From Podospora anserina (Eukaryota): 64,000 bases of DNA. The notes below the pieces were generated by a model. The model ran no database searches. It saw nothing but the letters and a program-made list of their open reading frames with translations, and was not told the DNA's origin. Shown piece by piece: positions 3,432 through 46,726 of the stretch (positions are counted from its first letter, which is position 1; the number at the start of each line of letters is the position of its first letter). The stretch covers positions 1,426,001 through 1,490,000 of the forward strand of contig CM030333.1 of the NCBI GenBank assembly GCA_017654855.1, in the 5' to 3' direction. The position numbers and the translations under genes were made by a program.

Positions 3432-6400
3432 TCAAGCCCAAACCAACTTCTTAACCCTGTGCCCCAAAGTCTCCAGCAACCCCGTGTTCTTCTTCGCCTC
3501 CGCCACACTGATAATATCCCCCTTCTCAATCAAATGTCCCTCCCCCTCCTCCTTCTCCCCCTTCACCTCCCTCGGCTGATTCAACAGCGCCAACCTCTCA
3601 ATCTCGGCCGCGATAACAACCACCTGCTGAGTCTCGGTAAGCCGCGCAATGTCCTCATCCTCCTCCTCCTCCCCCCCAATCTTCACCTTCCCAGCACCAC
3701 CCTCCCCACTCACAGCAGCAGACGTCTGGCTGTACAACGCCTTCAACGCAATCTTCCTCGTAGGCGTCGTCACCGCAGCAGCAGCAGCAGCAGCAACATT
3801 CTTTCCCGAAAAGAAGCCCGCCACCCCCGACAGCGCCGCGCTCGCAAAGTCGTCATTTGTCGGTTTCGGGTGATCACTCATGCTCGACAACGACCTCGTG
3901 TTGACACGCGTGACGTCCGTCAACCCAGGCTTGTACTCAATCACCAACCCCATGTTCCTCAGCTCGTCCACCTGCGCAGGCGAGATGGTGCTCGTGATAT
4001 AAGTCCCGAATCTAATCTTTGTCACATGCGCCAGGTCAACCCTCTCAAAGCTAGAGACCTTGTCGAGGTTCCAGTCAAACCGGCAGAGATAGAGGGCCGA
4101 GTCGGTAAGTAGCAAGACTGCCTCCTCAAAGGTGGCACTGCGGATGGTGTCCGGCGTGCTAGGCGTGAGGAAGGCCCAACCACCAATAAACTCCTCTGCT
4201 TCGTCTTCAATAACCCGTTTCTGGCAGAGCTCAATAGCCTGCTGGCGCATGTTTTGCATCGATACCGCCGGGTCCTTGGTCATCATGTTTGCTTCAAACT
4301 CTTCAAACACAAGGGAGGTGACGTTCCCCAACAAAAAATCGATGCTGGCTTGGAGAAAAAAGTCGTTAAACATCCTGCCACACTGTTAGCAACCCAGCAA
4401 CCCACAGTCGGGATCAATGCAGAAACATACCCATTAAACAACCTCGTCAAGCTCAACCCAGCATCCGTCAACGCCCCCCTATAATTCCTCTTCCTCGTCC
4501 TCGTATAATCCCCCTTCATCGCCCCGGTCCCCGCATACTGCTTCCCGATCGCATCCCCATTATCCGCCCACAACCCATTAAACCAGCTATTCTCCTGATC
4601 TTTTTGCTTTTCCATATCAATCCCCTCCTCCCTCAGCTGCAAATCCAGCATAAACTTCCCAAACGAGCTCTGACAAACATTCGTCCGATCCAAACAATCC
4701 ATACAATTCGTCCTCAACACCCCCTTTTGTCTTCGCTCCACAACCCCATCCACCACAACACTACTCCCCAGCTCCTCCAGCCTCCCGCCCAAAATCCCCA
4801 ACAACACGCTCACATTCTCAAACTTCATCCCCCTGCACACCGAGTGAAAATCAAACCACTCGAACCCAATCTTTTCCTTTCCCTCCTTCACCAACTCCTC
4901 GTTCAACCTCTCCACGCCCCGTTCGTAAACCTCCCCAATCGGTGCCTCGACCCCATGTTTCTCCACCAAATTCACCACCTCCAACCCCCCGTACCGCTCC
5001 CCCAACCGTCCGAAATGCTTCCTCAACGCCGCAAAGTTCGCCTCCTGACTATGCTGCAACACCGGCGTCGGCTTCAACGAATACGGACTCTGAGTAAAAA
5101 ACACCGGGAAACTCCCCCTGACTTGCGCAAAACTATACACCCTCCCCTTATCCCCCCCATCAGCCTCATACAAAATCTGCTCCGTCTCGACCCCATTCGC
5201 CACCCATCCCTGCTCGTCAATCCCCCGACGCAAATACCTCAACCCCGCCCGTTTTATACTCCTCCTGCTTATCACCGTGATAACAAACTTCCTCTCCGTA
5301 CCCCCCTTCTTCCCGCCCAATCCCCCCCCCTCCCCCTCCCGTTTCTCCTCCGAAGGCGACAGATCCCTCATCTCCACACTCTCCTCTCCCCCCTTTTCCC
5401 CCTCATCCTCCTGAGCCGGGCTCTCGTCCACCGTAAACTCCCTCTCCCCCACAAACCCCTGCATCAGCGGCAAAACCACCCCCTCCACCCCCGCCTCCCT
5501 GAACCGTCTCATGATGTGCCCATTCCAGAAATACTCCCCCTCCACCCCCTCCCCCAGCCCTCTCAACCCCCCATCCGCCAACCTCCTCGTAACATCAACA
5601 TCATACCCAAAGAAGAACGTCCTGCTACTCCCAAACAGTATCTGTGCCGTCCTCAGCAACTTGGGCAACAACTCAATCGCAGCCTCGCTCCCATCCGCCC
5701 CATCCGGGATCTGAAACCTCGTCGGCACGTTCTTATTGCTCGCCCTATTCTGCTGGGCAGGAGGAGTGCCAGAGTCGGGCGTAAGGCCCATCTGCCTTTT
5801 GTTCTCCGCCGCCCACCCGGAGCGGGAAAACCACCTCTGCGCAAAACGGCCATAACTCCCCCGTCTGCTAATCACATCCTTCGCAATACTACTGCTGCTC
5901 GTATTCTCAGGAGGAGTGATGGCGTCGTCCTCCGTTGCTGACTCGACCGCGTCGTCACGGGGCAGTTCATCAATCCCTAACCCCCCCGTTTCTTCGTCAC
6001 CGCTGGTAGACTGGCTTGTGCTCCCCTCCTTCTGCAGCCTGTTCTTCAACGCCAGCGCCGTCTTCCCAATCGAATCCGCCGCTTCCTGCCGGGAGGTGAG
6101 GGGTGTCAAAGCGACTTCGGTGACGACGTAGATGGGGTGGCGACCAAACAAATTAGCGACCTGCTGCCTTCGGGTGACGGTGATGAGGTAGGAGTAGTGA
6201 AACACTGTTATTATGCCTGTATGATCATCCCACCCACTGCGTCAACATCATGTACCGGAAAGATGGTGGGGCGGGAAAGAGACAAACCAACAACCCCATA
6301 AGCCTCAAAACTCTCGCTCGTCGCTGGCGGTGCGTGATCCCTCCCGACGGTCGAAACAGAAACATTACTCCCATACTTGATCTTCACCAGCGGCAACGGC

Positions 6401-10049: not shown

Positions 10050-10136
10050 GCCCGGCTAGCTCAATCGGTAGAGCGTGAGACTCTTAAGGAGTACTCCGAA
10101 ATCTCAAGGTTGTGGGTTCGACCCCCACGTCGGGCT
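10050..10136 (+). tRNA. tRNA-Lys(CTT) with ~14-nt intron (~10087-10100)
   Basis: Acceptor stem GCCCGGC/GTCGGGC, D-arm TAGCTCAATCGGTAGAGC, anticodon stem TGAGA/TCTCA around CT-CTT-A, T-loop GGTTCGACCC, downstream T-run terminator near 10158. Confidence 0.95.
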
Positions 10137-11529
10137 CAATTCCCGATCTACGATCACTTTTTTGATGTTTTGACTGTATGTCTGTACTGCAGACAGGATT
10201 GGGTGATGTAATGTAATGTAATGTAATGTGGAGGGAAGGTGTGTCAACTTCAGTTTACAGCAGACAGGATCGGGTGATGTGATGTGGGGAGGGAGGATGT
10301 GGCAACTTCTTTTTTGGTTGACTATGAATAACGTACGAGGAGACCTCTGCTCATGGTTTTCCCGCTTCAGTGTGTATATATATATGTGTAATGTAGGAGA
10401 CATTAAACCTCGAACTGGGCGGTATAAGTCTCTTGTACTCGTGCATTTTCACTCTCAGGGTTTTATAGGGACATGAGAAAGTTCCCTCGAGACAAGTGAT
10501 TCATAATGGGCCAACGAGGAACAAATACAGAAGAGGTGTGTTTGGTCATTGACGGACAGGGTGATCCTGGAGAGAATTGCTGGACGATGAGAAGATGGGC
10601 AAATAGACAGTCAATGCTTTGTCTTGGTAATTATATATCAGATCGGTTTTGAGCCATCTGAAGTTGTCGTGGCTAGGACCCTGCCGACGGGAACCCAAAC
10701 CTTCCCGTAGACTCCGGACGACTCCGAATACTAGTATTTCGGCAGTTGATGTCTTGTTTTGAGATGGATCGATCTTCAGCCCCAGGTGAAGGAAGGATCG
10801 CATTCGCAAAACGTTCCCATTGTGATGATGCGATGTTCGTTCAAGGTGCAGGTGGAGAATGTGACAACGCAAACGCTTAAGGGACCAACAAATGCGACGG
10901 TGGTATTAGGTAATACTAGTATTCCGCCGTGTTGGGTGCCGCACCAGCCACGAAGGAGGCTGGATGGCTGGAATACTGACAGATTGTGGCTCGGACAGTG
11001 TCATGCAAGGGGACGCGGGAACTGCCGAGTGGTCAATTGGGTTTGTTCAGCCGGGTTAGATTCCCCGCTATTTCTGCTGTGATCCTGCCAATTGTTTCGC
11101 GCAGATGGGAGCTCGCTGCTTTCTCGGCCGGCGGGTGAGAGAGCGAGAGAGAGAGAGAGACATGGGTCGGGAATGTCGTTGCAGTGTGCCAGCAAAGAGA
11201 CACAGCAGCAGTAGCGAGCAGCAGCGAGTCTTGGCCCTTGTCGGATGTCTTTTTGTACCTACCGTGTACAACGATTTTTGGGGGCTGTTTTTTTCTCTCG
11301 ATCCCGCTCCTTGTCGCGTTTCCCCTCCCCCTTTTCGACCTCAAGGCGCAGTGTTCTTTTTTTTCCCCTTCTTCTTCATACCTAGGTGTCCTAGTTTACC
11401 TCGCCTCTCTCTTGCGCCCGCCACCTACCATCATATCGAATCATATTCTTACGGTTACACTCCGCGCACCCTGTACGCGCTGCTGCTTGCTCCACACCTC
11501 GACTAGGGAATACTAGTATCCAGATCAAC

Positions 11530-19146: not shown

Positions 19147-19599
19147 AGCGAAATAGACCTGGAGATGGGAAGAAAACAGAATAATAAATAAAAAATAAAT
19201 AAAAATATAAAAAACAATATCTTCGCTTTTGTGTCAAAGTCCTGGTCCAAGAGATGAATCTCGTCACCGGTAGATAATTCATCCATGTTTTGATAAAACA
19301 CTCAAAACCACCTTTTAATCACTACCTATCCAATATTTCTACCCTTTTCCACGTGTCACACACCGCAGCAAGTTATATACAACCCCCAAACACCCCAATC
19401 GCCCAGACAAAACATGATTCATCAAACCACACCCTATTCATTACAACCCTTTATATACCCTATAATAACAAAAAAAATGAAGAAAAAAAACCTTATCCTA
19501 TCTCTCTACGCCTTTCCCTAGTTTCCTAGTTTTTTTTTGGTTTTTGAACCCTCTCCCGCCCCTTCCCATCTTGTGCCCCACCACCGTTATCCTTCCCCT

Positions 19600-20403
19600 T
19601 TACTCATTCATACCAGGCAGGATGTTCTCCCTAGCTTTAGACACCGCCTTCAATCCAGCAACCCGCATCCCCCTCCTGGGTCGCTCTTGTAGCTGCAACA
19701 GGCCCAAGACTCCCTGTCGGTGTTCCCTTTGTGGACTACTACTCAGCATGGCGCTGATTCGTGACGTATACCTTCCCGCACTGGCTGGCGTGGCGGGAGT
19801 AGCTGGGCTAGGGGTTGCTGGGATAGGAGCAGGAATGGTGGGTCGAGTAGGACTGGTAGGTCGGGAGGGAGTAGCTGGCTCCAGAGAAACATGCGCGGGC
19901 CTAATAGCAGGAGTTGGTGCCGTTACAGGAGTTGGGACCGGAGCAGGAGCAGGAGCAGCAGCGGCAGCAGCAGCAGCAGCAGCAGCAACAGGACTATGAA
20001 CCACCACCGTCTCCATTCCCTCCTCCCCATCACCAGGAGCAGCACCCGTCCGATGGATAATAACCGTGCTGGCCCCTCCCCCCTCCACCACAGACCCCGT
20101 ATCAGGCGTAACAGGTGACGGGGGTGGTGCCGGCGGCAGCATACTCCCACCACTCCCACCACTCCCACCAACACCAACCCCGGGCGTCCCAGGATCCGGG
20201 ATCCTCCCCCTCTGCCTCTGATGCAACAGATACTGCTGGTGATGCAGCCTCTGCTGCAACAGCTGGTGTTGACTTCTTCCACCTGCACAACCACCACCAC
20301 CACCAGCAGTCTTAGCAGGCGACGGACTCAACCCGCTCCCCCCAGCCCCCCCATCATCCACCACCTCATGATACACCCTCTTCTTCATCGGCGAGTCACC
20401 TTT
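19600..20403 (-). other. In-frame open extension (267 sense codons plus stop) downstream of the SIN kinase TAG; putative editing/readthrough-dependent C-terminus
   Basis: ...AGG TGG CCT TAG AAA GGT GAC TCG CCG ATG AAG... continues in the same frame, with no stop until 19600-19602. Confidence 0.6.
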
Positions 20404-23400
20404 CTAAGGCCACCTCCCCTTATTATCCCCCCCATCCCGTCCCCCAGCCGGCAGGTTCACATCCGAAACCGACTCCATCCTCGAAATCGAACTCGGCGCC
20501 CTCGCCCTCCTGACTTTATTCCCGCTCTGTCCAGACGTGGCCGTCGTAGCCGTCGTCCCGCTGCTCCCAGTAGACAAACTAGTCGATCCGCTCCCCCCAC
20601 TGGCATCCCGCTCCCTCTCTATCCTTTCCAGCCTCTCCCCTAACCTATCAGCACCGTCCTGCCTCGCAGACTGGCTGAACCTCTCACTGCTGCTGCTGTC
20701 TTGCCGGGCACTCTGGCTAAAATAACTCCGGCTCTGGGAGTGACTATCCCTTCTGGCTTGGTGCCCAAACGCGGCAGAGCTACTGCTCGGTCTGTTGGAA
20801 CTGCTCGGGTTCACAAGATTGAAACCCGCTGCTGATAAAAAGCTAGAGCTTGTCGGGCTGGCAGAGTACTGCGACGCTCCCGTGATGGAGATCGACGATC
20901 CAGATCGTAACCGGCCCATGACGTGCTCCCGACTGCTAAGAGAAGAATCACTCCTCTCTGCCCTCGTAGCGGTAATAGGCATCGACGCCGCAGTCGACAA
21001 GCTCGGCCTTGTAAAATGCGAATGGCTCGTCCTCGGCAACCGACTCTTCACCCCCGACCCAGAAGACGGACTCATCGCCAACCCGGCCGCCGTGGCATCT
21101 TGGCTCACCCTCCTAGGTATGCTCGTCGCCACCACGGCCCCTTCTCTACTCCTCGGCCGAAACAACGCCGCCTCCCTATCCTGCGCCAACCCCACCACCG
21201 TCCTCTTCGGCGTACTATTCGCAACCTCGATGTAAGCCGCCGCACTCGAGCTCGACTGGCTAGCCCGATGCCCCGTCGGTGTATGCGGCCCACCACCACC
21301 ACCGCTCAAGTGCAAGCCCCCAGGCGGCGTATAACTGGTATTCCTCCTCGGCCCACTCCTGCTCCTCCCCGCACCCACCCCCGCTCCTCCTACCGACCCC
21401 CCCATCGACCCCTGAACACTGTTCCCCAACCCCAACCCACTCAACGCCAGCGCCTCATGCTGCAGGTCATTGCCAAAGTGAGCCCTCACCAGCTCCCCAG
21501 CCAAATTCCTAACCAGCACCGCCGGGTCCTTATCCGCCAACCCCTGAATATCATCAAACAACGCCCTCAACTGCTTCCCCGTGTTGGACGAGCTGTTAGA
21601 CGACATACTCAAATTATGCGCCTCGCACCCATCCATAATATTCCTCACCAGCCTCAGCAGATTCAACCTCACCACCGCCTTCTTATGCCCCAGCTTCTGG
21701 GCAATCCCGGCGTACATCTCCGCCTTGGCCAGACTCGCCGCCACGGCAGGACTCAGCCTCAAGACTTTGAGCAACGGCTCCAAAAGGTTCGGATCAAAAG
21801 CATTCGCCTTGGCAGGGTTAAAACAGCTCACAATAGCCGTCATAAACATCCCATCCATCAAGTGGCTCTCCACCTTGGCCGTCTCCTCCTGCAGCCAGAC
21901 ATGGATCGCATCCAGCGCCGTGACTTGCCAGTACTGATCAGCCAGCAGGGTAACGTAAAACTCCAATCCGTGATTCTGCCAGAGATACCTCCTCCCCTTG
22001 CTGCCGGAATGTGCCATATCGCAGAGAATAGGCAGGACAAACTCCTTTGGTGGGCGGTCCGTCTTCATGATTTTGAGGAGTAGCGGAATAATCCCATTGC
22101 TGGCGGCATATTCTTGGCGTTCTTTGCTTAGTCGACAAAGATTGAACATGGTGTTGAGGACTTGGTTCGAGATCTCGCGGAAGTGCTTCTGTCCCTTCTT
22201 CATCGAGAGACTCAGCACATCGATCAAGAAATCAATCGCATCGGCCGAGTGAAGTGCATCCAAAACCGCAGAGCACTGTGACATGTTCTTGATGAACTTG
22301 AGCATCGTGATCTGATGAGCAGGTGTCATCCGTCTCAGATCCTTGAGGACCGCTTTTCAGATCATTAGCAACCCTTTTCTCCGTAAAAAAAATAAAAAAA
22401 TAAAAAAAATATACTAAAAAAATTAAAAAAAAGATTTTTTTTTTAGGGGAAGGGAGGGACCTACTCTTCAAAACCTGCCTCTCAGCCACAACCTCCTTCA
22501 CATACGCCTCCGCCTGGGAAAACAGATAAAAAATCCCCACAATCCTCCCCTCCACCAGCTCGCTCAGCTCATCCCCCCGCTCCTCGTCCAGCACCTTGTG
22601 CAGTATCGCCGCCAGCGGATCCAAAATCTTGCTCCTGCTGAAAATCCGGCAGAAATCATTCTTCGGCGTCGGCCCCTGCAGCTCAAACACATTCCATATC
22701 CCATTCACCCCAATCAGCACCAGATCCTGACTCGTCTCATAGTCCTCGTCCAGAAACTCCACCAAGACATTCAACCCGCCCGCGCTGACAAACATTTGCA
22801 ATGTCAGGGTAGAAGTCTGATACATCTGCCTCACAAACGCCGCAGCCTCGAGCCGAATCTCATTCGAGTACTGCCTGGCGGCAAACTTGGTGACGATCGG
22901 TATCCCACCGACGAAGCACAAGTTCTCTTGCAACTCCACATCATCAAGGATAATCTACCCCTTTGTTAGTCCCCTTCCCACGACACCCAATTCACAAAAC
23001 TCACCGCATTAACAATCCTCAACAACCCCAACACCATGCCCCCCCGACTCTTAACCCCACACCCCTCCAAAATCTCCAATATCGGCAGCAGCCCATGCGC
23101 CCCCATGATCAGCCCCTTCACCTCCTCCCCCCCCTCCCACAAATACGCCAGCAAATCCTCGGCCAGCTCCCCCAACACCTCCTCATCCTCCACCTGCCTC
23201 ATCTTGGACAAACTCTTCACCAAACTCTCCACCTTCTCCGCCATCCTAGCATGTCGATCTCTCGCAATATTCGCCGCCAAATCCATCTCGTCCATCCACC
23301 CCGGCTCCTCCATCATGGCAAACGGATCGTCCTCGTCCCCGTCGTCGTCCCCAAGCCAGCTGCTATTCGACAGCTTACTCAGCACCAGCTGCTGCTGCTG

Positions 23401-26204
23401 CTGCTGACCATCTTCACTCCCCCTATCACTTTCTTCAGCCGTCGCCTCGTTCTTCAAGAAAGACGTCGCGTTGTCAGTCCCCGGGACAACGCCAAATATA
23501 TCCGAGAAATCCTCGTCCTGCTCGTCCTCGGCAAACTTTGTAATCTCCACTTGCGATCTCGTCCTTCGAACAGGCGGTTCAGGCGGCTGTAACGACGACC
23601 CCGTCGTTGCTGGCGGTCTCGAGGAGTTAGGTCTCCTTATGCTAGCCCCCAAGGGAGATTGCTGGTGTTGAGTGGCCGATCTCGGTGGAGGACTGGTGAG
23701 ATCCGAGGGGTGGAACAGCTGTGGAGCTTCCTATGAAAATCATCGATAGTTAGTCTCTATTTATTGATCTCATCTCCTCAATGTCCACAATAAACATGGT
23801 CATTCTCCTCAGCACAATAGAAAAAACATACCTTGACAACCCCCAATCTCCTGTCAAAAACCCCCTCGTTATCCGCAAACAAATCCGAATAATCATTGTC
23901 CCCCGACTGCTCCCGATACAGCAAATCTGGCCTCGGCGGTAGCTCAAACTTGCCGTTGTTCCCCAACAACTGCTGCTTCGTCGGTGACTTTGACACCCTG
24001 CTATCCCTGCTCCTCTGCCTCCTATGCTTCTCACTCAACCGGTCACTGCTCTTCTTCGGCAGCGGCCGTATCGTCTGCTCCTGCGCATCAAAGCTCTCAG
24101 ACCAGTGCTTTGGCCCTTTGATCGTCAGCAGCTCCCCCTCAAAGTTATCATCCCAGTTTTCCGAGTCCTGGTGGCTGTCAATAGAAGCAAACGCCTTGAG
24201 CCGGTCGCTGGACAACAACCCCCCAAAGTTATCCTGCCCCTTGATATGCGGGAGGTGAAGAGCCGTGGGCGAGATAGCAGACGCAAAGTCGTTGTCCCAG
24301 TTGTCGTCGTCGGGTACCTCTGGTGATCTGAACGCATCAGGAGTAGGTCTCTGCTTCGTCACCAGCGTCAACGGGCCCCTGATATTCGTAGCCAGGTTCG
24401 GCCGCTGGCTGATCGGGCCGTTGCTCTGATCAGACCCAATCGAGACTCTCATGTTGTGCTCCGAAGACCTGAGAGCCTTATTCCACTGCTTAACCTCCTC
24501 AACCGCCTGGTTGAAGTTGGCAGGTGGTCTCGACACCGGAGCGTCCGTCCTCCTGCACCCAATAATCCACGGGTGCTTCATCAGCTTCTTCGCCGTAACC
24601 CTCAAATTCGGATCTTTCTGAAAACAAGCCATAAGAAAGTCCCTCGCAACCTATCCCACCCAAATCATTAGCCCTTCCCCGAAACCTGTCCTACCCCAAA
24701 GAAAAACTCACCGGAGACACCCCCTCAGGCAAAGGAGGGTGATCATCATTAACAATGGCAAACAGCGCCGGCATAGCCGCCAAGTTATGATACGGCGGCT
24801 TCCCCTGCAGCAGCTCAATAACCGTACACCCGACGCTCCAGATATCGCTCGCCGACGTCGCACCCGACAGCTGAATAATCTCTGGCGCCATCCAGTACGG
24901 GGTCCCCACCACCTGAGCCTCCTTGTCGTTCCCCGTCATGAACTGGCTCGTCGAAACGCCAAAGTCGGCCAGCTTGACCGTCCCATCCTTGGTCGTCAGT
25001 ATATTCGCCCCCTTGATGTCCCTGTGAATCACACCCTGGTCGTGCAGATACTGCAAGCCCTGTAGGACCTGAGCCATGTACACTCCCACCAAGTTCTCGG
25101 GAAACTTTCCGTACGCCTTGCAAATCGAATGCAGTGATCCATTTTCGCAGTACCTAAAATACGAGTCAGTCGTCTCCCCATTCCCTCCGTAACAAACCAA
25201 AAACTCACTCAAGGATGATATTCAAGCACTCGGCCGTCTTGACAAACCCGACATACTTGACGATATTCGGATGCTGTACCACCCTTGTCAGCCTTTTCCC
25301 CCTTTCCCCTAACCCCTACCCATGCATCACAACTCACATTGAGATTCTTCAACAAATCGATTTCAACCTGCAGATCAACAACCCATTAGCAAAGCCCCGG
25401 CATTCCCCCAGTCTTGTCCCACCATCACCCCTCTCGGTCCGGTATCTTCTCAGCCAAACCTACCTCAACCATACGCAGCTCACTCTTCGGCACATCCACC
25501 AGCTTGATCTGCTTAACAGCCACCGCCTCCCCGGTCCCCCAATTAAAGGCCTTGTAGACAGATCCGAAAGCTCCCTTTCCGATGCAGTCTCCTAGTCGCT
25601 ACATAGAATTTTGGTCAGCTTATGTCTCATAACCCAGTGAAAACAGTCCGGGGCGGGGTGTGTGTATGCAAAAGTGTGATGTATCAGCCCCAAAACAAAG
25701 AAGAAGAAAAACCCAATCCCAATCCCGCCAAGCCACACACATGCGTATCCTGCACGGGGTATGTATGGCGGACGGTATACTGCACACCCCCTCCATACAT
25801 TCCCCTCCCCTCCCCCACAACACGAAAAAGAAAAGAGGCAGCATGGCTTTCGGGTATCGGGAAATCCCAGTCCATAAAGTGATCGATCCAATCTGATAGG
25901 AAGGGTAGACCTAAAGAAAAAAAAGAAAAACAAACGTCCTCCGGAAGGGGGGGTCAGTGAGACAAAAAAGAAAAAAAAGAAAACCTACATAATCCTTCAA
26001 CCCCGGATCCTGCACCGGCTTCTCCAACCGATAACTCTGCTCCCTCCTCGGCGTCCCCGGTGTCTTGCTGCTGCCCACCACCGCCTGCTGTTGTTGCTGT
26101 TGCTGTAGCTTTCCCCCATTCCCACCGCCTTGATGATATGCCGCCGCCGCCCGGTCCGAACCAGAGGGTCCTATCGGCGGCGGTGGTGGTGGTGGTGGTG
26201 CCAT
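20404..26204 (-). CDS. sepH: Septation initiation network STE-family kinase (SepH / S. pombe Cdc7 / yeast Cdc15 type) with C-terminal helical-repeat region; ~9 exons
   Basis: Spliced kinase domain [18 protein letters not shown]...VAVKQI...|YCENGSL...[10 protein letters not shown]...DFG...GTPYWMAPE...NDDHPPLP, then the conserved [10 protein letters not shown] and LLRLVRNI regions; first in-frame stop is TAG at 20404-20406. Confidence 0.9.
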
Positions 26205-46652: not shown

Positions 46653-46726
46653 TGATTTCGTCCAGGCTCGAACTGGAGACCTTCAGTGTGTTAGACTGAC
46701 GTGATAACCAACTACACCACGAAACC
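46653..46726 (-). tRNA. tRNA-Val(AAC), intronless
   Basis: Reverse complement GGTTTCGTGGTGTAGTTGGTTATCACGTCAGTCT-AAC-ACACTGAAGGTCTCCAGTTCGAGCCTGGACGAAATCA folds as a cloverleaf; a T-run follows on the minus strand. Confidence 0.95.

Follow-up and report, generated by a model that had tools for sequence, protein, structure and literature searches.

The UAG codon that ends the Cdc7/SepH kinase gene of Podospora anserina lies in a small predicted hairpin loop, is followed by 267 open codons in the kinase frame, and is shared by every member of its clade in which the stop could be read. These features suggest that it may be a conserved, substrate-like site for sexual-stage A-to-I mRNA editing by Tad2/Tad3, a reading to which we assign an even chance. 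The window analyzed here is a stretch of 64,000 nucleotides, with positions counted from its first letter. The native stop TAG occupies 20404..20406 on the minus strand, and the candidate edited base is its A, at plus-strand position 20405. UAG is the one stop codon that becomes a sense codon through a single A-to-I change, namely UIG, which is decoded as Trp.

The kinase coding sequence extends over 20407..26204 on the minus strand, starting from ATG 26204, and encodes 1623 aa in 9 exons (26204-25989, 25598-25464, 25367-25338, 25273-25209, 25153-24712, 24650-23832, 23730-23005, 22954-22465, and 22352-20407). Seven of its introns are backed by spliced RNA contigs from 3 to 4 of the 4 runs, which show either GT..AG joints or a loose end, and the intron at 23004-22955 was placed from an ORF break and an 8-nt loose end in run X13. 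The protein contains a Pkinase domain (Pfam; E value of 3e-42), and an ARM_ARMC5 match scored only 24.4 bits, below the family cutoff. A phmmer search of 1.84 billion representatives returned 826 relatives, with names that include “Cytokinesis protein sepH,” “cell division control protein 15,” and “cdc15.” Based on the Pkinase domain and these orthologue names, the gene is assigned to the Cdc7/SepH/Cdc15-type SIN kinases, and its originally predicted identity is thereby borne out.

The minus strand carries the predicted kinase end, GGG AGG TGG CCT TAG AAA GGT GAC TCG CCG. The kinase C terminus reads ...GRWP before the TAG, and the orthologues end in ...RRSRAPS..RWS* (pattern ...RRxRAPS..RW[SP]*). 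This shared C terminus identifies the TAG, at the level of sequence comparison, as the native, ancestral, and conserved end of the protein.

Past the TAG, the kinase frame remains open for 267 codons (19603..20403, minus strand), as had been predicted; this G/A/P/Q-rich extension ends in ...RRGMRVAGLKAVSKARENILPGMNE, followed by TAA at 19600..19602 (stop-to-stop ORF 19600..20403). Dinucleotide-preserving shuffles of these 801 nt are expected to contain 10.0 stops on average, and only 1 of 20000 had none, so the frame is open beyond chance. The GC3 value of the extension is 0.50 versus 0.70 in the kinase coding sequence. AF2 modeling indicates mostly disorder (mean pLDDT of 49.7), with one confident helix at extension residues 42 to 64. 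The extension has no Pfam family and no Atlas match.

A relative of the extension was found in a single named organism, Triangularia setosa, which we take to belong to the Podosporaceae (Sordariales). Its 228-aa protein KAK4177953.1 (P0095) is 63% identical to the extension, with 16 gap blocks, all of whole codons. Another sequence, P0005, is 99% identical and differs by an in-frame 8-aa deletion; the frame is kept in both. No homologue was found outside the Podosporaceae: tblastn against all 80 cdc7 loci had a best E value of 0.42, and of the 596 pattern matches that the extension alignment produced in metagenomes, not one was confirmed. The more distant members of the clade have unrelated in-frame extensions of 7 to 144 codons. 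Among these, only those of L006 and L011 exceed the shuffles in length (P = 0.003 and P = 0.018, respectively), whereas the in-frame runs after the TAG in L003, L016, L007, and L015 are no longer than in shuffles. An apparent [IL]S[AT]ML motif, present in the window extension and in those of L006 and L007, was dropped as not significant against shuffles. A protein that fuses the kinase and the extension was absent from the best 150 of the 826 phmmer matches, from the matches listed by a word-index search for proteins of 504 to 1607 aa (a blank weakened by low-complexity words, which filled the limit of 8000 candidates), and from 513 candidates of 469 to 2000 aa retrieved through the C-terminal block.

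The hairpin around the TAG (20395..20413, minus strand) is present in the sequence as predicted. It consists of the 5' arm GUGGCC (20413-20408), the 7-nt loop UUAGAAA (20407-20401), and the 3' arm GGUGAC (20400-20395). The stem includes one G-U pair and one G-G mismatch. A 51-nt segment folds in RNAfold at -13.4 kcal/mol versus a shuffle mean of -8.29 (z-score of -2.68; 2 of 200 shuffles fold as well); for a 63-nt segment around the TAG, the z-score is only -1.87, and 12 of 200 shuffles are as good. The fold does place the A of the UAG in the loop, as expected; however, the minimum free energy (MFE) structure adds two U-A pairs, which make this A the first base of an AGA triloop. The candidate A is flanked by U at -1, G at +1, and A at +3 (U-A-G-A-A). 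These flanks and the loop position fit the published editing preferences for U at -1 and for A or G at +1 and +3 (PMC11156358).

The TAG is fixed in the clade of the window and variable outside it. In a kinase tree built on the ARM region, this clade has a support of 0.973, and all 10 of its readable stops are TAG, namely those of the window and 9 metagenome loci (L001, L003/4/5, L016, L006, L007, L011, and L015). The Colletotrichum-containing sister clade has TGA in 2 of 2 cases, and a more distant clade has TGA three times, TAA twice, and TAG once; overall, TAG accounts for 2 of the 14 readable stops outside the clade of the window. At a minimum, 3 stop-codon changes are needed over a branch length of 0.58 in the control clade, compared with 0 over 1.07 in the clade of the window. 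A rough Poisson expectation for the latter is 5.5 changes (P of about 0.004).

The pairs that close the loop also recur in this clade. With the loop fixed as N-UAG-NNN, five closing pairs were scored in 8 clade and 6 control sequences. All five pairs form in L001, L007, L011, and L015, half of the clade sequences, whose 3' arms differ; for a single sequence, the null frequency of this outcome is 0.008 to 0.043. Four of the 5 loop-proximal pairs form in the window, along with 2 further pairs, and none of the 6 control sequences reaches 4 of 5. The 5-bp stem is absent in this register from L003, L016, and L006. When 63-nt segments of the 8 clade sequences are folded, the A lies within a hairpin loop of the MFE structure in 5 of them (dot-brackets read by eye), and the z-scores of these segments lie between -0.78 and +1.16 in 6 of the 8. 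The base at +1 is G in all 8 clade sequences, the base at +3 is a purine in 6, and the first base after the stop codon is a purine in all 8. Covariation is weak. Paired alignment cells make up 67.9% versus 66.0% in shuffles, and 158 of 500 shuffles do as well; when the register is slid, the highest value is 58.9%. No stem pair has changes on both sides, and the RNAalifold consensus is a 4-bp stem of only -0.5 kcal/mol. The expectation that orthologues would share the site holds for the clade-wide TAG and, in four of the eight clade sequences, for the full set of loop-closing pairs, but the extension itself is kept only in close relatives.

The RNA evidence consists of spliced, unstranded contigs, rather than raw reads, from four runs (X1, X2, X13, and X4). 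Colinearity with the genome extends over 21370-19393 in the X1 contig; in the X2 contig it starts at 20444 and passes 19300. Both are in agreement with the predicted transcript that spans the TAG and the whole extension. An intron that would remove the TAG was rejected, as neither of these contigs, both of which cross the site, contains one. Both carry the genomic base at 20405; the stage of the samples is unrecorded and contigs drop minority variants, so this observation weighs little against editing. No listed piece of an X13 or X4 contig spans 20405.

If the site is edited, the RNA would present U-A-G in a small hairpin loop to the Tad2/Tad3 deaminase, deamination of A20405 would convert UAG to UIG (Trp), and ribosomes would go on for 267 codons. 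The resulting long isoform would have 1891 aa, its G/A/P/Q-rich tail being largely disordered, and would be formed alongside the 1623-aa vegetative form. The FgDbf2 case suggests that the tail could reduce the amount of the kinase or relocate it during ascospore delimitation; alternatively, its length and conservation could mean that it is an added regulatory module. We infer the occurrence of editing, its stage specificity, and a function of the tail, and mRNA editing in P. anserina as such would be expected by analogy with related fungi. The originally proposed role of the long isoform in retuning septation is purely conjectural. A more elaborate version of the editing model is doubtful as a whole. 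It would date the fixation of the editing-gated cdc7 stop to the ancestor of a large Sordariomycete clade, independently of and in addition to the DBF2, MOB1, and CDC14 sites. In the Podosporaceae, the tail would have grown into a module of 230 to 270 aa, kept by purifying selection, in which a helix and a C-terminal block are conserved. The fruiting-body-specific isoform would then do more than act as a degron and have a function of its own, perhaps in the way Podospora delimits spores with two nuclei each, which is unusual.

The extension could instead belong to a separate small gene, which we consider unlikely. Such a gene would start in the last kinase exon or use internal initiation at ATG 20388 (20386..20388, minus strand), five codons past the TAG in the same frame, and encode a 262-aa disordered protein; the kinase would always stop at the TAG, and the shared frame would be a coincidence, with a probability of 1 in 3. 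The T. setosa homologue is indeed annotated as a gene of its own, its first Met aligns with ATG 20388, and the searched collections yielded no fused protein. The Met start of P0005 at the same ATG carries no weight, because it comes from ORF calls on run assemblies. The X13 contig depth is 27.5 over 19300-19930, versus about 3 to 10 in the kinase body, but contig depth cannot rank gene parts and was not counted as evidence. However, the TAG and the ATG are just 15 nt apart, so that a promoter would have to lie within the kinase coding sequence, and the ATG has a weak context, with C at -3, where start codons prefer a purine. Furthermore, the X1 and X2 contigs bridge the junction, the putative small protein would be one with neither a recognized domain family nor homologues beyond the Podosporaceae, and neither the clade-wide fixation of the TAG nor the recurring loop-closing pairs would be explained.

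It is quite unlikely, in our estimate, that nothing past the TAG is translated, so that the extension would be part of a long 3' untranslated region (UTR), left open by a stop-poor, GC-rich, low-complexity composition; the TAG and the pairing would then owe their conservation to shared ancestry or to another cause, such as the context of termination or a site for RNA binding. Long ORFs do occur in other frames here, one of 134 aa on the minus strand and three (172, 117, and 174 aa) on the plus strand, and the low GC3 of the extension, the nonsignificant covariation tests, the ordinary length of the post-TAG runs in the four loci named above, and the A at 20405 in the RNA contigs all agree with this view. 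What it fails to account for is the rarity of open shuffles of matched composition and the frame kept in T. setosa through all 16 gap blocks at 63% identity, and the conserved region is not covered by any one antisense ORF. It would also require an unusual UTR, 1.0 kb or more in length and continued by a GC-poor tail of 0.2 to 0.4 kb, whereas a typical fungal UTR is shorter. Programmed translational readthrough of the UAG in the absence of editing, with the hairpin as a stimulator, would also fit the conserved UAG, the local structure, and the open conserved frame, but we regard it as very improbable. The purine that follows the stop in every clade sequence favors efficient termination, the known readthrough contexts UGA-CUA and UAG-CARYYA are absent, and a structure that stimulates readthrough usually follows the stop at a distance of a few nucleotides rather than enclosing it. 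Readthrough would also have no specific need for TAG.

Under the editing model, the cdc7 site is a candidate new case of a published kind, the stop-loss editing of other SIN genes. Such editing has been described in Fusarium graminearum for FgDBF2, FgMOB1, and FgCDC14, at levels of 70 to 78%, in a 2026 report (PMC13123824), according to which DBF2 has TAG in 94% and the hairpin in 82% of Sordariomycetes. The available part of that report lists Cdc7 as a SIN component and does not name FgCdc7 among the edited SIN genes. Similarly to those three genes, cdc7 is a SIN gene with a canonical UAG in a predicted hairpin loop, with TAG fixed only inside a Sordariomycete clade and with a disordered extension kept only in close relatives. 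It differs in being the upstream kinase (Cdc7/SepH), with editing predicted here, in a TAG clade that, unlike the one reported, excludes the Colletotrichum-like sister clade (TGA), and in the length of the extension, 267 codons compared to 24, 11, and 27 in the F. graminearum genes (PMC13123824). In Sordaria macrospora, the transcript of white collar 1 and 14 others are stop-loss edited, with peptide evidence (PMC6794485). As a member of the same order, Sordariales, with a long extension, cdc7 resembles WC-1, which gains 131 aa after UAG-to-UGG conversion; whereas the S. macrospora events are backed by RNA and peptides, the cdc7 site is known here from its sequence (PMC6794485). Editing has been published for other Sordariales (PMC13123824 and PMC6794485), and a P. 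anserina paper, in its available part, only notes the ADAT genes (bioRxiv 10.1101/2024.12.09.627484). The literature search found no report tying Cdc7, SepH, or NCU01335 to editing; supplementary site lists may contain one.

Tad2/Tad3 (ADAT), the A34 deaminase of tRNA anticodon loops, has been reported to edit fungal mRNA (PMC11156358 and PMC10962958). The cdc7 element shares with its tRNA substrates a 7-nt loop with U-A at bases 2 and 3 and a G-C-rich closing stem, but, as part of an mRNA, it lacks a tRNA body, and its stem contains a mismatch. The A34 tRNA of the window itself, tRNA-Val(AAC) at 46653-46726, has the loop CUAACAC, as read from its sequence, likewise of 7 nt and with U and A as the second and third bases. 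The loop UUAGAAA may also be that of the yeast tRNA-Ser(IGA) anticodon, as originally proposed; tRNA scans that covered the window and 41 of the 80 related loci found no tRNA-Ser gene.

If cdc7 is edited, four SIN components (Cdc7, Dbf2, Mob1, and Cdc14) would be gated by stop-loss editing, pointing to a coordinated RNA-level rewiring of cytokinesis signaling for ascospore formation. The cdc7 extension would be the longest conserved editing-dependent extension in the pathway and, for that reason, a good test of whether such tails are mere destabilizers or functional. Clade-specific fixation of TAG could also serve as a cheap genomic predictor of conserved stop-loss sites. Should editing be absent, the locus would still have a conserved, unannotated coding sequence of 262 to 267 aa adjoining an essential kinase gene.

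Transcription continues past the extension stop, through a region of the minus strand at 19300..19599 with a GC content of 0.41; the RNA contigs reach 19393 (X1) or pass 19300 (X2, X13, and X4). As the contigs are unstranded, the transcript of a convergent neighbor may add to the signal at 19300-19599. Contig breaks at 20352, 20444, and 20453 (in X2, X13, and X4) were considered as potential editing bubbles and rejected as technical, lying, by eye, at or beside G-rich stretches. The sole variant in 6.6 kb is a synonymous C>T at 20185, a strain difference seen in all 4 runs.

The kinase gene (26204-20404, minus strand) comprises nine exons, its coding sequence having been built from the intron joints in spliced RNA contigs from four public runs, and the assembled product is 1623 aa long. 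Its N terminus holds a Ser/Thr kinase domain (Pkinase, E 3e-42), followed by a conserved ARM-like region and a long Ser/Gly-rich tail. A phmmer search of 1.84 billion representatives returned 826 relatives, the named ones including "Cytokinesis protein sepH" (Pseudocercospora) and "cell division control protein 15" (Phyllosticta). The domain and these names identify the gene as the Cdc7/SepH/Cdc15 kinase, which heads the septation initiation network (SIN). The first intron within the coding sequence (25599-25988, minus strand) is 390 nt long and reads GTAGGT...TGTAG, with support from 3 runs, in which a 255-nt loose end maps to 25989 onward; the other seven introns span 50 to 112 nt. The protein ends in ...GRWP, followed by TAG at 20406-20404. 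Because orthologues have matching C-terminal ends (...RRSRAPSSDLRWS, ...SDVKWSS, and similar), this TAG must be the native stop codon, not a premature one.

A metagenome scan with the kinase alignment yielded 80 fungal cdc7 loci. The C terminus and stop codon could be read in 18 of them through the YRPRSR motif and in 5 further Dothideomycete-like loci; groups were taken from a FastTree tree of the ARM region. In the clade of the Podospora anserina gene (support 0.973; loci L001, L003/L004/L005, L016, L006, L007, L011, and L015), all 10 readable stops are TAG. The sister clade with Colletotrichum (L010 and L070), in which we assume Fusarium to belong, has TGA in both loci. The next clade out, with 6 loci in the tree (L075 duplicates L074), uses TGA three times, TAA twice, and TAG once, and its sister pair L018/L079 differs in the stop (TAA versus TAG), while the Dothideomycete-like loci have four TGA and one TAG. 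By parsimony, the stop codon changed 0 times over a branch length of 1.07 in the TAG clade and 3 times over 0.58 in the control clade; at the control rate, ∼5.5 changes would be expected in the TAG clade (P near 0.004), which is rough arithmetic from one small control clade.

The original prediction placed the UAG in the loop of a hairpin, GUGGCC/UUAGAAA/GGUGAC, and this structure is recovered as described (RNAfold, −13.4 kcal/mol; z = −2.68 in 51 nt and −1.87 in 63 nt). In the relatives, the register was set by a 7-nt loop in which UAG is preceded by the third base of the last sense codon and followed by three more bases. All five loop-proximal pairs form in L001, L007, L011, and L015, with different 3′ arms (GGCCA, GGUCG, GAUCG, and GACCG, respectively); elsewhere in each 3′ region, such a 5/5 match has a background frequency of 0.008 to 0.043. 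The P. anserina sequence has four of the five along with two other pairs; L003, L016, and L006 have two or three, and 0 of 6 control sequences have four or more. L003, L016, and L007 fold instead as longer two-stem hairpins, in which the ∼35 nt immediately following the stop are base-paired with the ...APSSDLRW codons (L003, 9546-9608; L016, 1222-1284; L007, 9522-9584), with the UAG inside or next to the apical loop; the L016 hairpin reaches −34.3 kcal/mol (z = −3.47). Between L003 and L016, conservation of the ∼35 nt past the TAG equals that of the coding tail. Covariation in the hairpin is weak: the alignment contains no pairs changed on both sides, as Trp and Ser/Pro codons fix the 5′ arm; 67.9% of the cells are paired versus 66.0% in shuffles and up to 58.9% in slid registers; the RNAalifold consensus is a 4-bp stem of −0.5 kcal/mol; and the 63-nt z-scores of the clade sequences are mostly unremarkable.

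Downstream of the TAG, the predicted 267-codon open frame is indeed present (20403-19603, closed by TAA); it stayed open in 1 of 20,000 dinucleotide-preserving shuffles of its 801 nt, for which ten stops are expected on average. The protein search, among the best 150 of 826 matches listed, found only stand-alone proteins matching this extension. One of them (P0005, 254 aa, called on run assemblies) is 99% identical to it, differing by three substitutions and the in-frame loss of 8 aa. Another, the 228-aa hypothetical protein KAK4177953.1 (P0095) from Triangularia setosa, a gene model compared at the protein level, shows 63% identity with conserved blocks along the whole length: GSGLSPSPAK, LQQRLHxQQYLLHQRQRGR, PPPSPxTPD, STVIIH, and SAMLSxSxxREHRQGVLGxLQLQE. 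Sixteen gap blocks separate these, every one of whole codons, and no single antisense open reading frame spanning the whole extension region was found. We regard this as good evidence of selection for reading the frame. Its GC3 is 0.50, lower than the 0.70 of the kinase coding sequence. The extension has no Pfam family and no match in the Atlas search, and AlphaFold2 (mean pLDDT 49.7) predicts it to be essentially disordered, with one confident helix (residues 42 to 64).

The four runs (X1, X2, X13, and X4) are RNA, since their contigs lack the introns. One X1 contig matches the genome colinearly over 21370-19393, one X2 contig does so from 20444 to beyond 19300, and X4 covers 20352 to beyond 19300, so that the TAG and the entire extension are covered by RNA. 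No intron removes the TAG in these contigs, and polyadenylation ahead of the extension, likewise held by the original prediction to be incompatible with a stop-loss switch, is not indicated by them. The contigs carry no strand information and merge transcripts that overlap, which makes them compatible with a second transcript starting near the TAG. At the candidate editing site, 20405, crossed by the listed contig pieces of X1 and X2 only and not of X13 or X4, both have the genomic base; as contigs drop minority variants and the runs are of unspecified stage, this is compatible with editing as well as with its absence. The sole contig difference in 6.6 kb, 20185 C>T, occurs in all four runs, from four studies; as it is also synonymous in the extension frame (ACG>ACA), we read it as a strain difference between the sequenced strain and that used for RNA work.

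Among the 80 cdc7 loci, no homologue of the extension was found (best tblastn E value, 0.42). The frames after the TAG in L003 and L016 (43 codons each), L007 (45), and L015 (7) are not longer than in shuffles; those of L011 (5847-6104, 86 codons, P = 0.018) and L006 (9624-10055, 144 codons, P = 0.003) exceed composition-matched shuffles in length and are unrelated in sequence to the P. anserina extension. Extensions are unrelated across lineages, except for P. anserina and T. setosa and for L003 and L016 (Smith-Waterman score 99; shuffle maximum, 46). The same pattern, a conserved TAG with local structure and disordered tails conserved among close relatives only, is described for DBF2 of Sordariomycetes in PMC13123824.

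The most economical reading, to which we give about an even chance, takes the cdc7 stop to be a conserved site at which the Tad2/Tad3 system of the sexual stage carries out stop-loss editing. UAG would become UIG, read as Trp, and translation would continue into the extension; in the lineage of Podospora and Triangularia, this tail would have grown long and been kept in frame. The main rival, in which translation of a separate gene starts at ATG 20388, would account for the T. setosa homologue being annotated on its own and for the absence of fused kinase-extension proteins from the search matches listed. However, it leaves the TAG fixation and the hairpin without explanation and requires a promoter within the kinase coding sequence, and we consider it improbable. 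Somewhat less probable still is that the region past the TAG is an untranslated UTR, and readthrough of the UAG independent of editing appears quite unlikely.

For the stop-loss editing reading, the UAG-to-UIG (Trp) mechanism is established for other genes (PMC4817773, PMC11156358, and PMC10962958), as is, in F. graminearum, the stop-loss editing of three further SIN genes (PMC13123824), and a 131-aa WC-1 extension in Sordaria macrospora has been proven by peptides (PMC6794485). For P. anserina itself, we infer mRNA editing, its location at the kinase TAG, its stage specificity, and an effect of the tail. In PMC13123824, FgCdc7 appears among the SIN components, but stop-loss editing is listed for DBF2, MOB1, and CDC14 only, which fits the tree, given that the Colletotrichum-like sister clade uses TGA. 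No paper linking Cdc7/SepH/NCU01335 to editing was found, albeit the supplementary site lists for Neurospora and Sordaria may already tabulate the site. The kinase TAG is a candidate addition to the known stop-loss editing sites, with an unusually long and conserved extension.

Several minor features were noted. One X2 contig (depth 174.7) lacks 84 nt of a kinase exon (21352-21435) in frame, i.e., 28 codons of the Gly/Ser-rich tail, with noncanonical ends and 7 nt of microhomology (GAGTGGG). In the three other runs, contigs break at 21340-21525, and no direct repeat was found; a strain indel, a template switch, or an assembly artifact may explain the skip. X4 alone has a contig (depth 13.3) with a 9-nt deletion at 23124, in a kinase exon, which probably reflects strain polymorphism of the poly-Gln (CAG) stretch. 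At third codon positions, G is strongly enriched and A and C are scarce in 20407-26204, 3435-4385, and 4286-6241 (minus strand; G3 ∼0.5, kinase A3 0.08), with a plus-strand GC skew of about −0.23 to −0.44, whereas other long open reading frames in the window favor C3, so that it seems to hold two codon-usage classes. The window also encodes tRNA-Leu(TAA) (10050-10137, plus strand) and tRNA-Val(AAC) (46653-46726, minus strand; anticodon loop CUAACAC), the latter, as an A34 tRNA, being a natural Tad2/Tad3 substrate.
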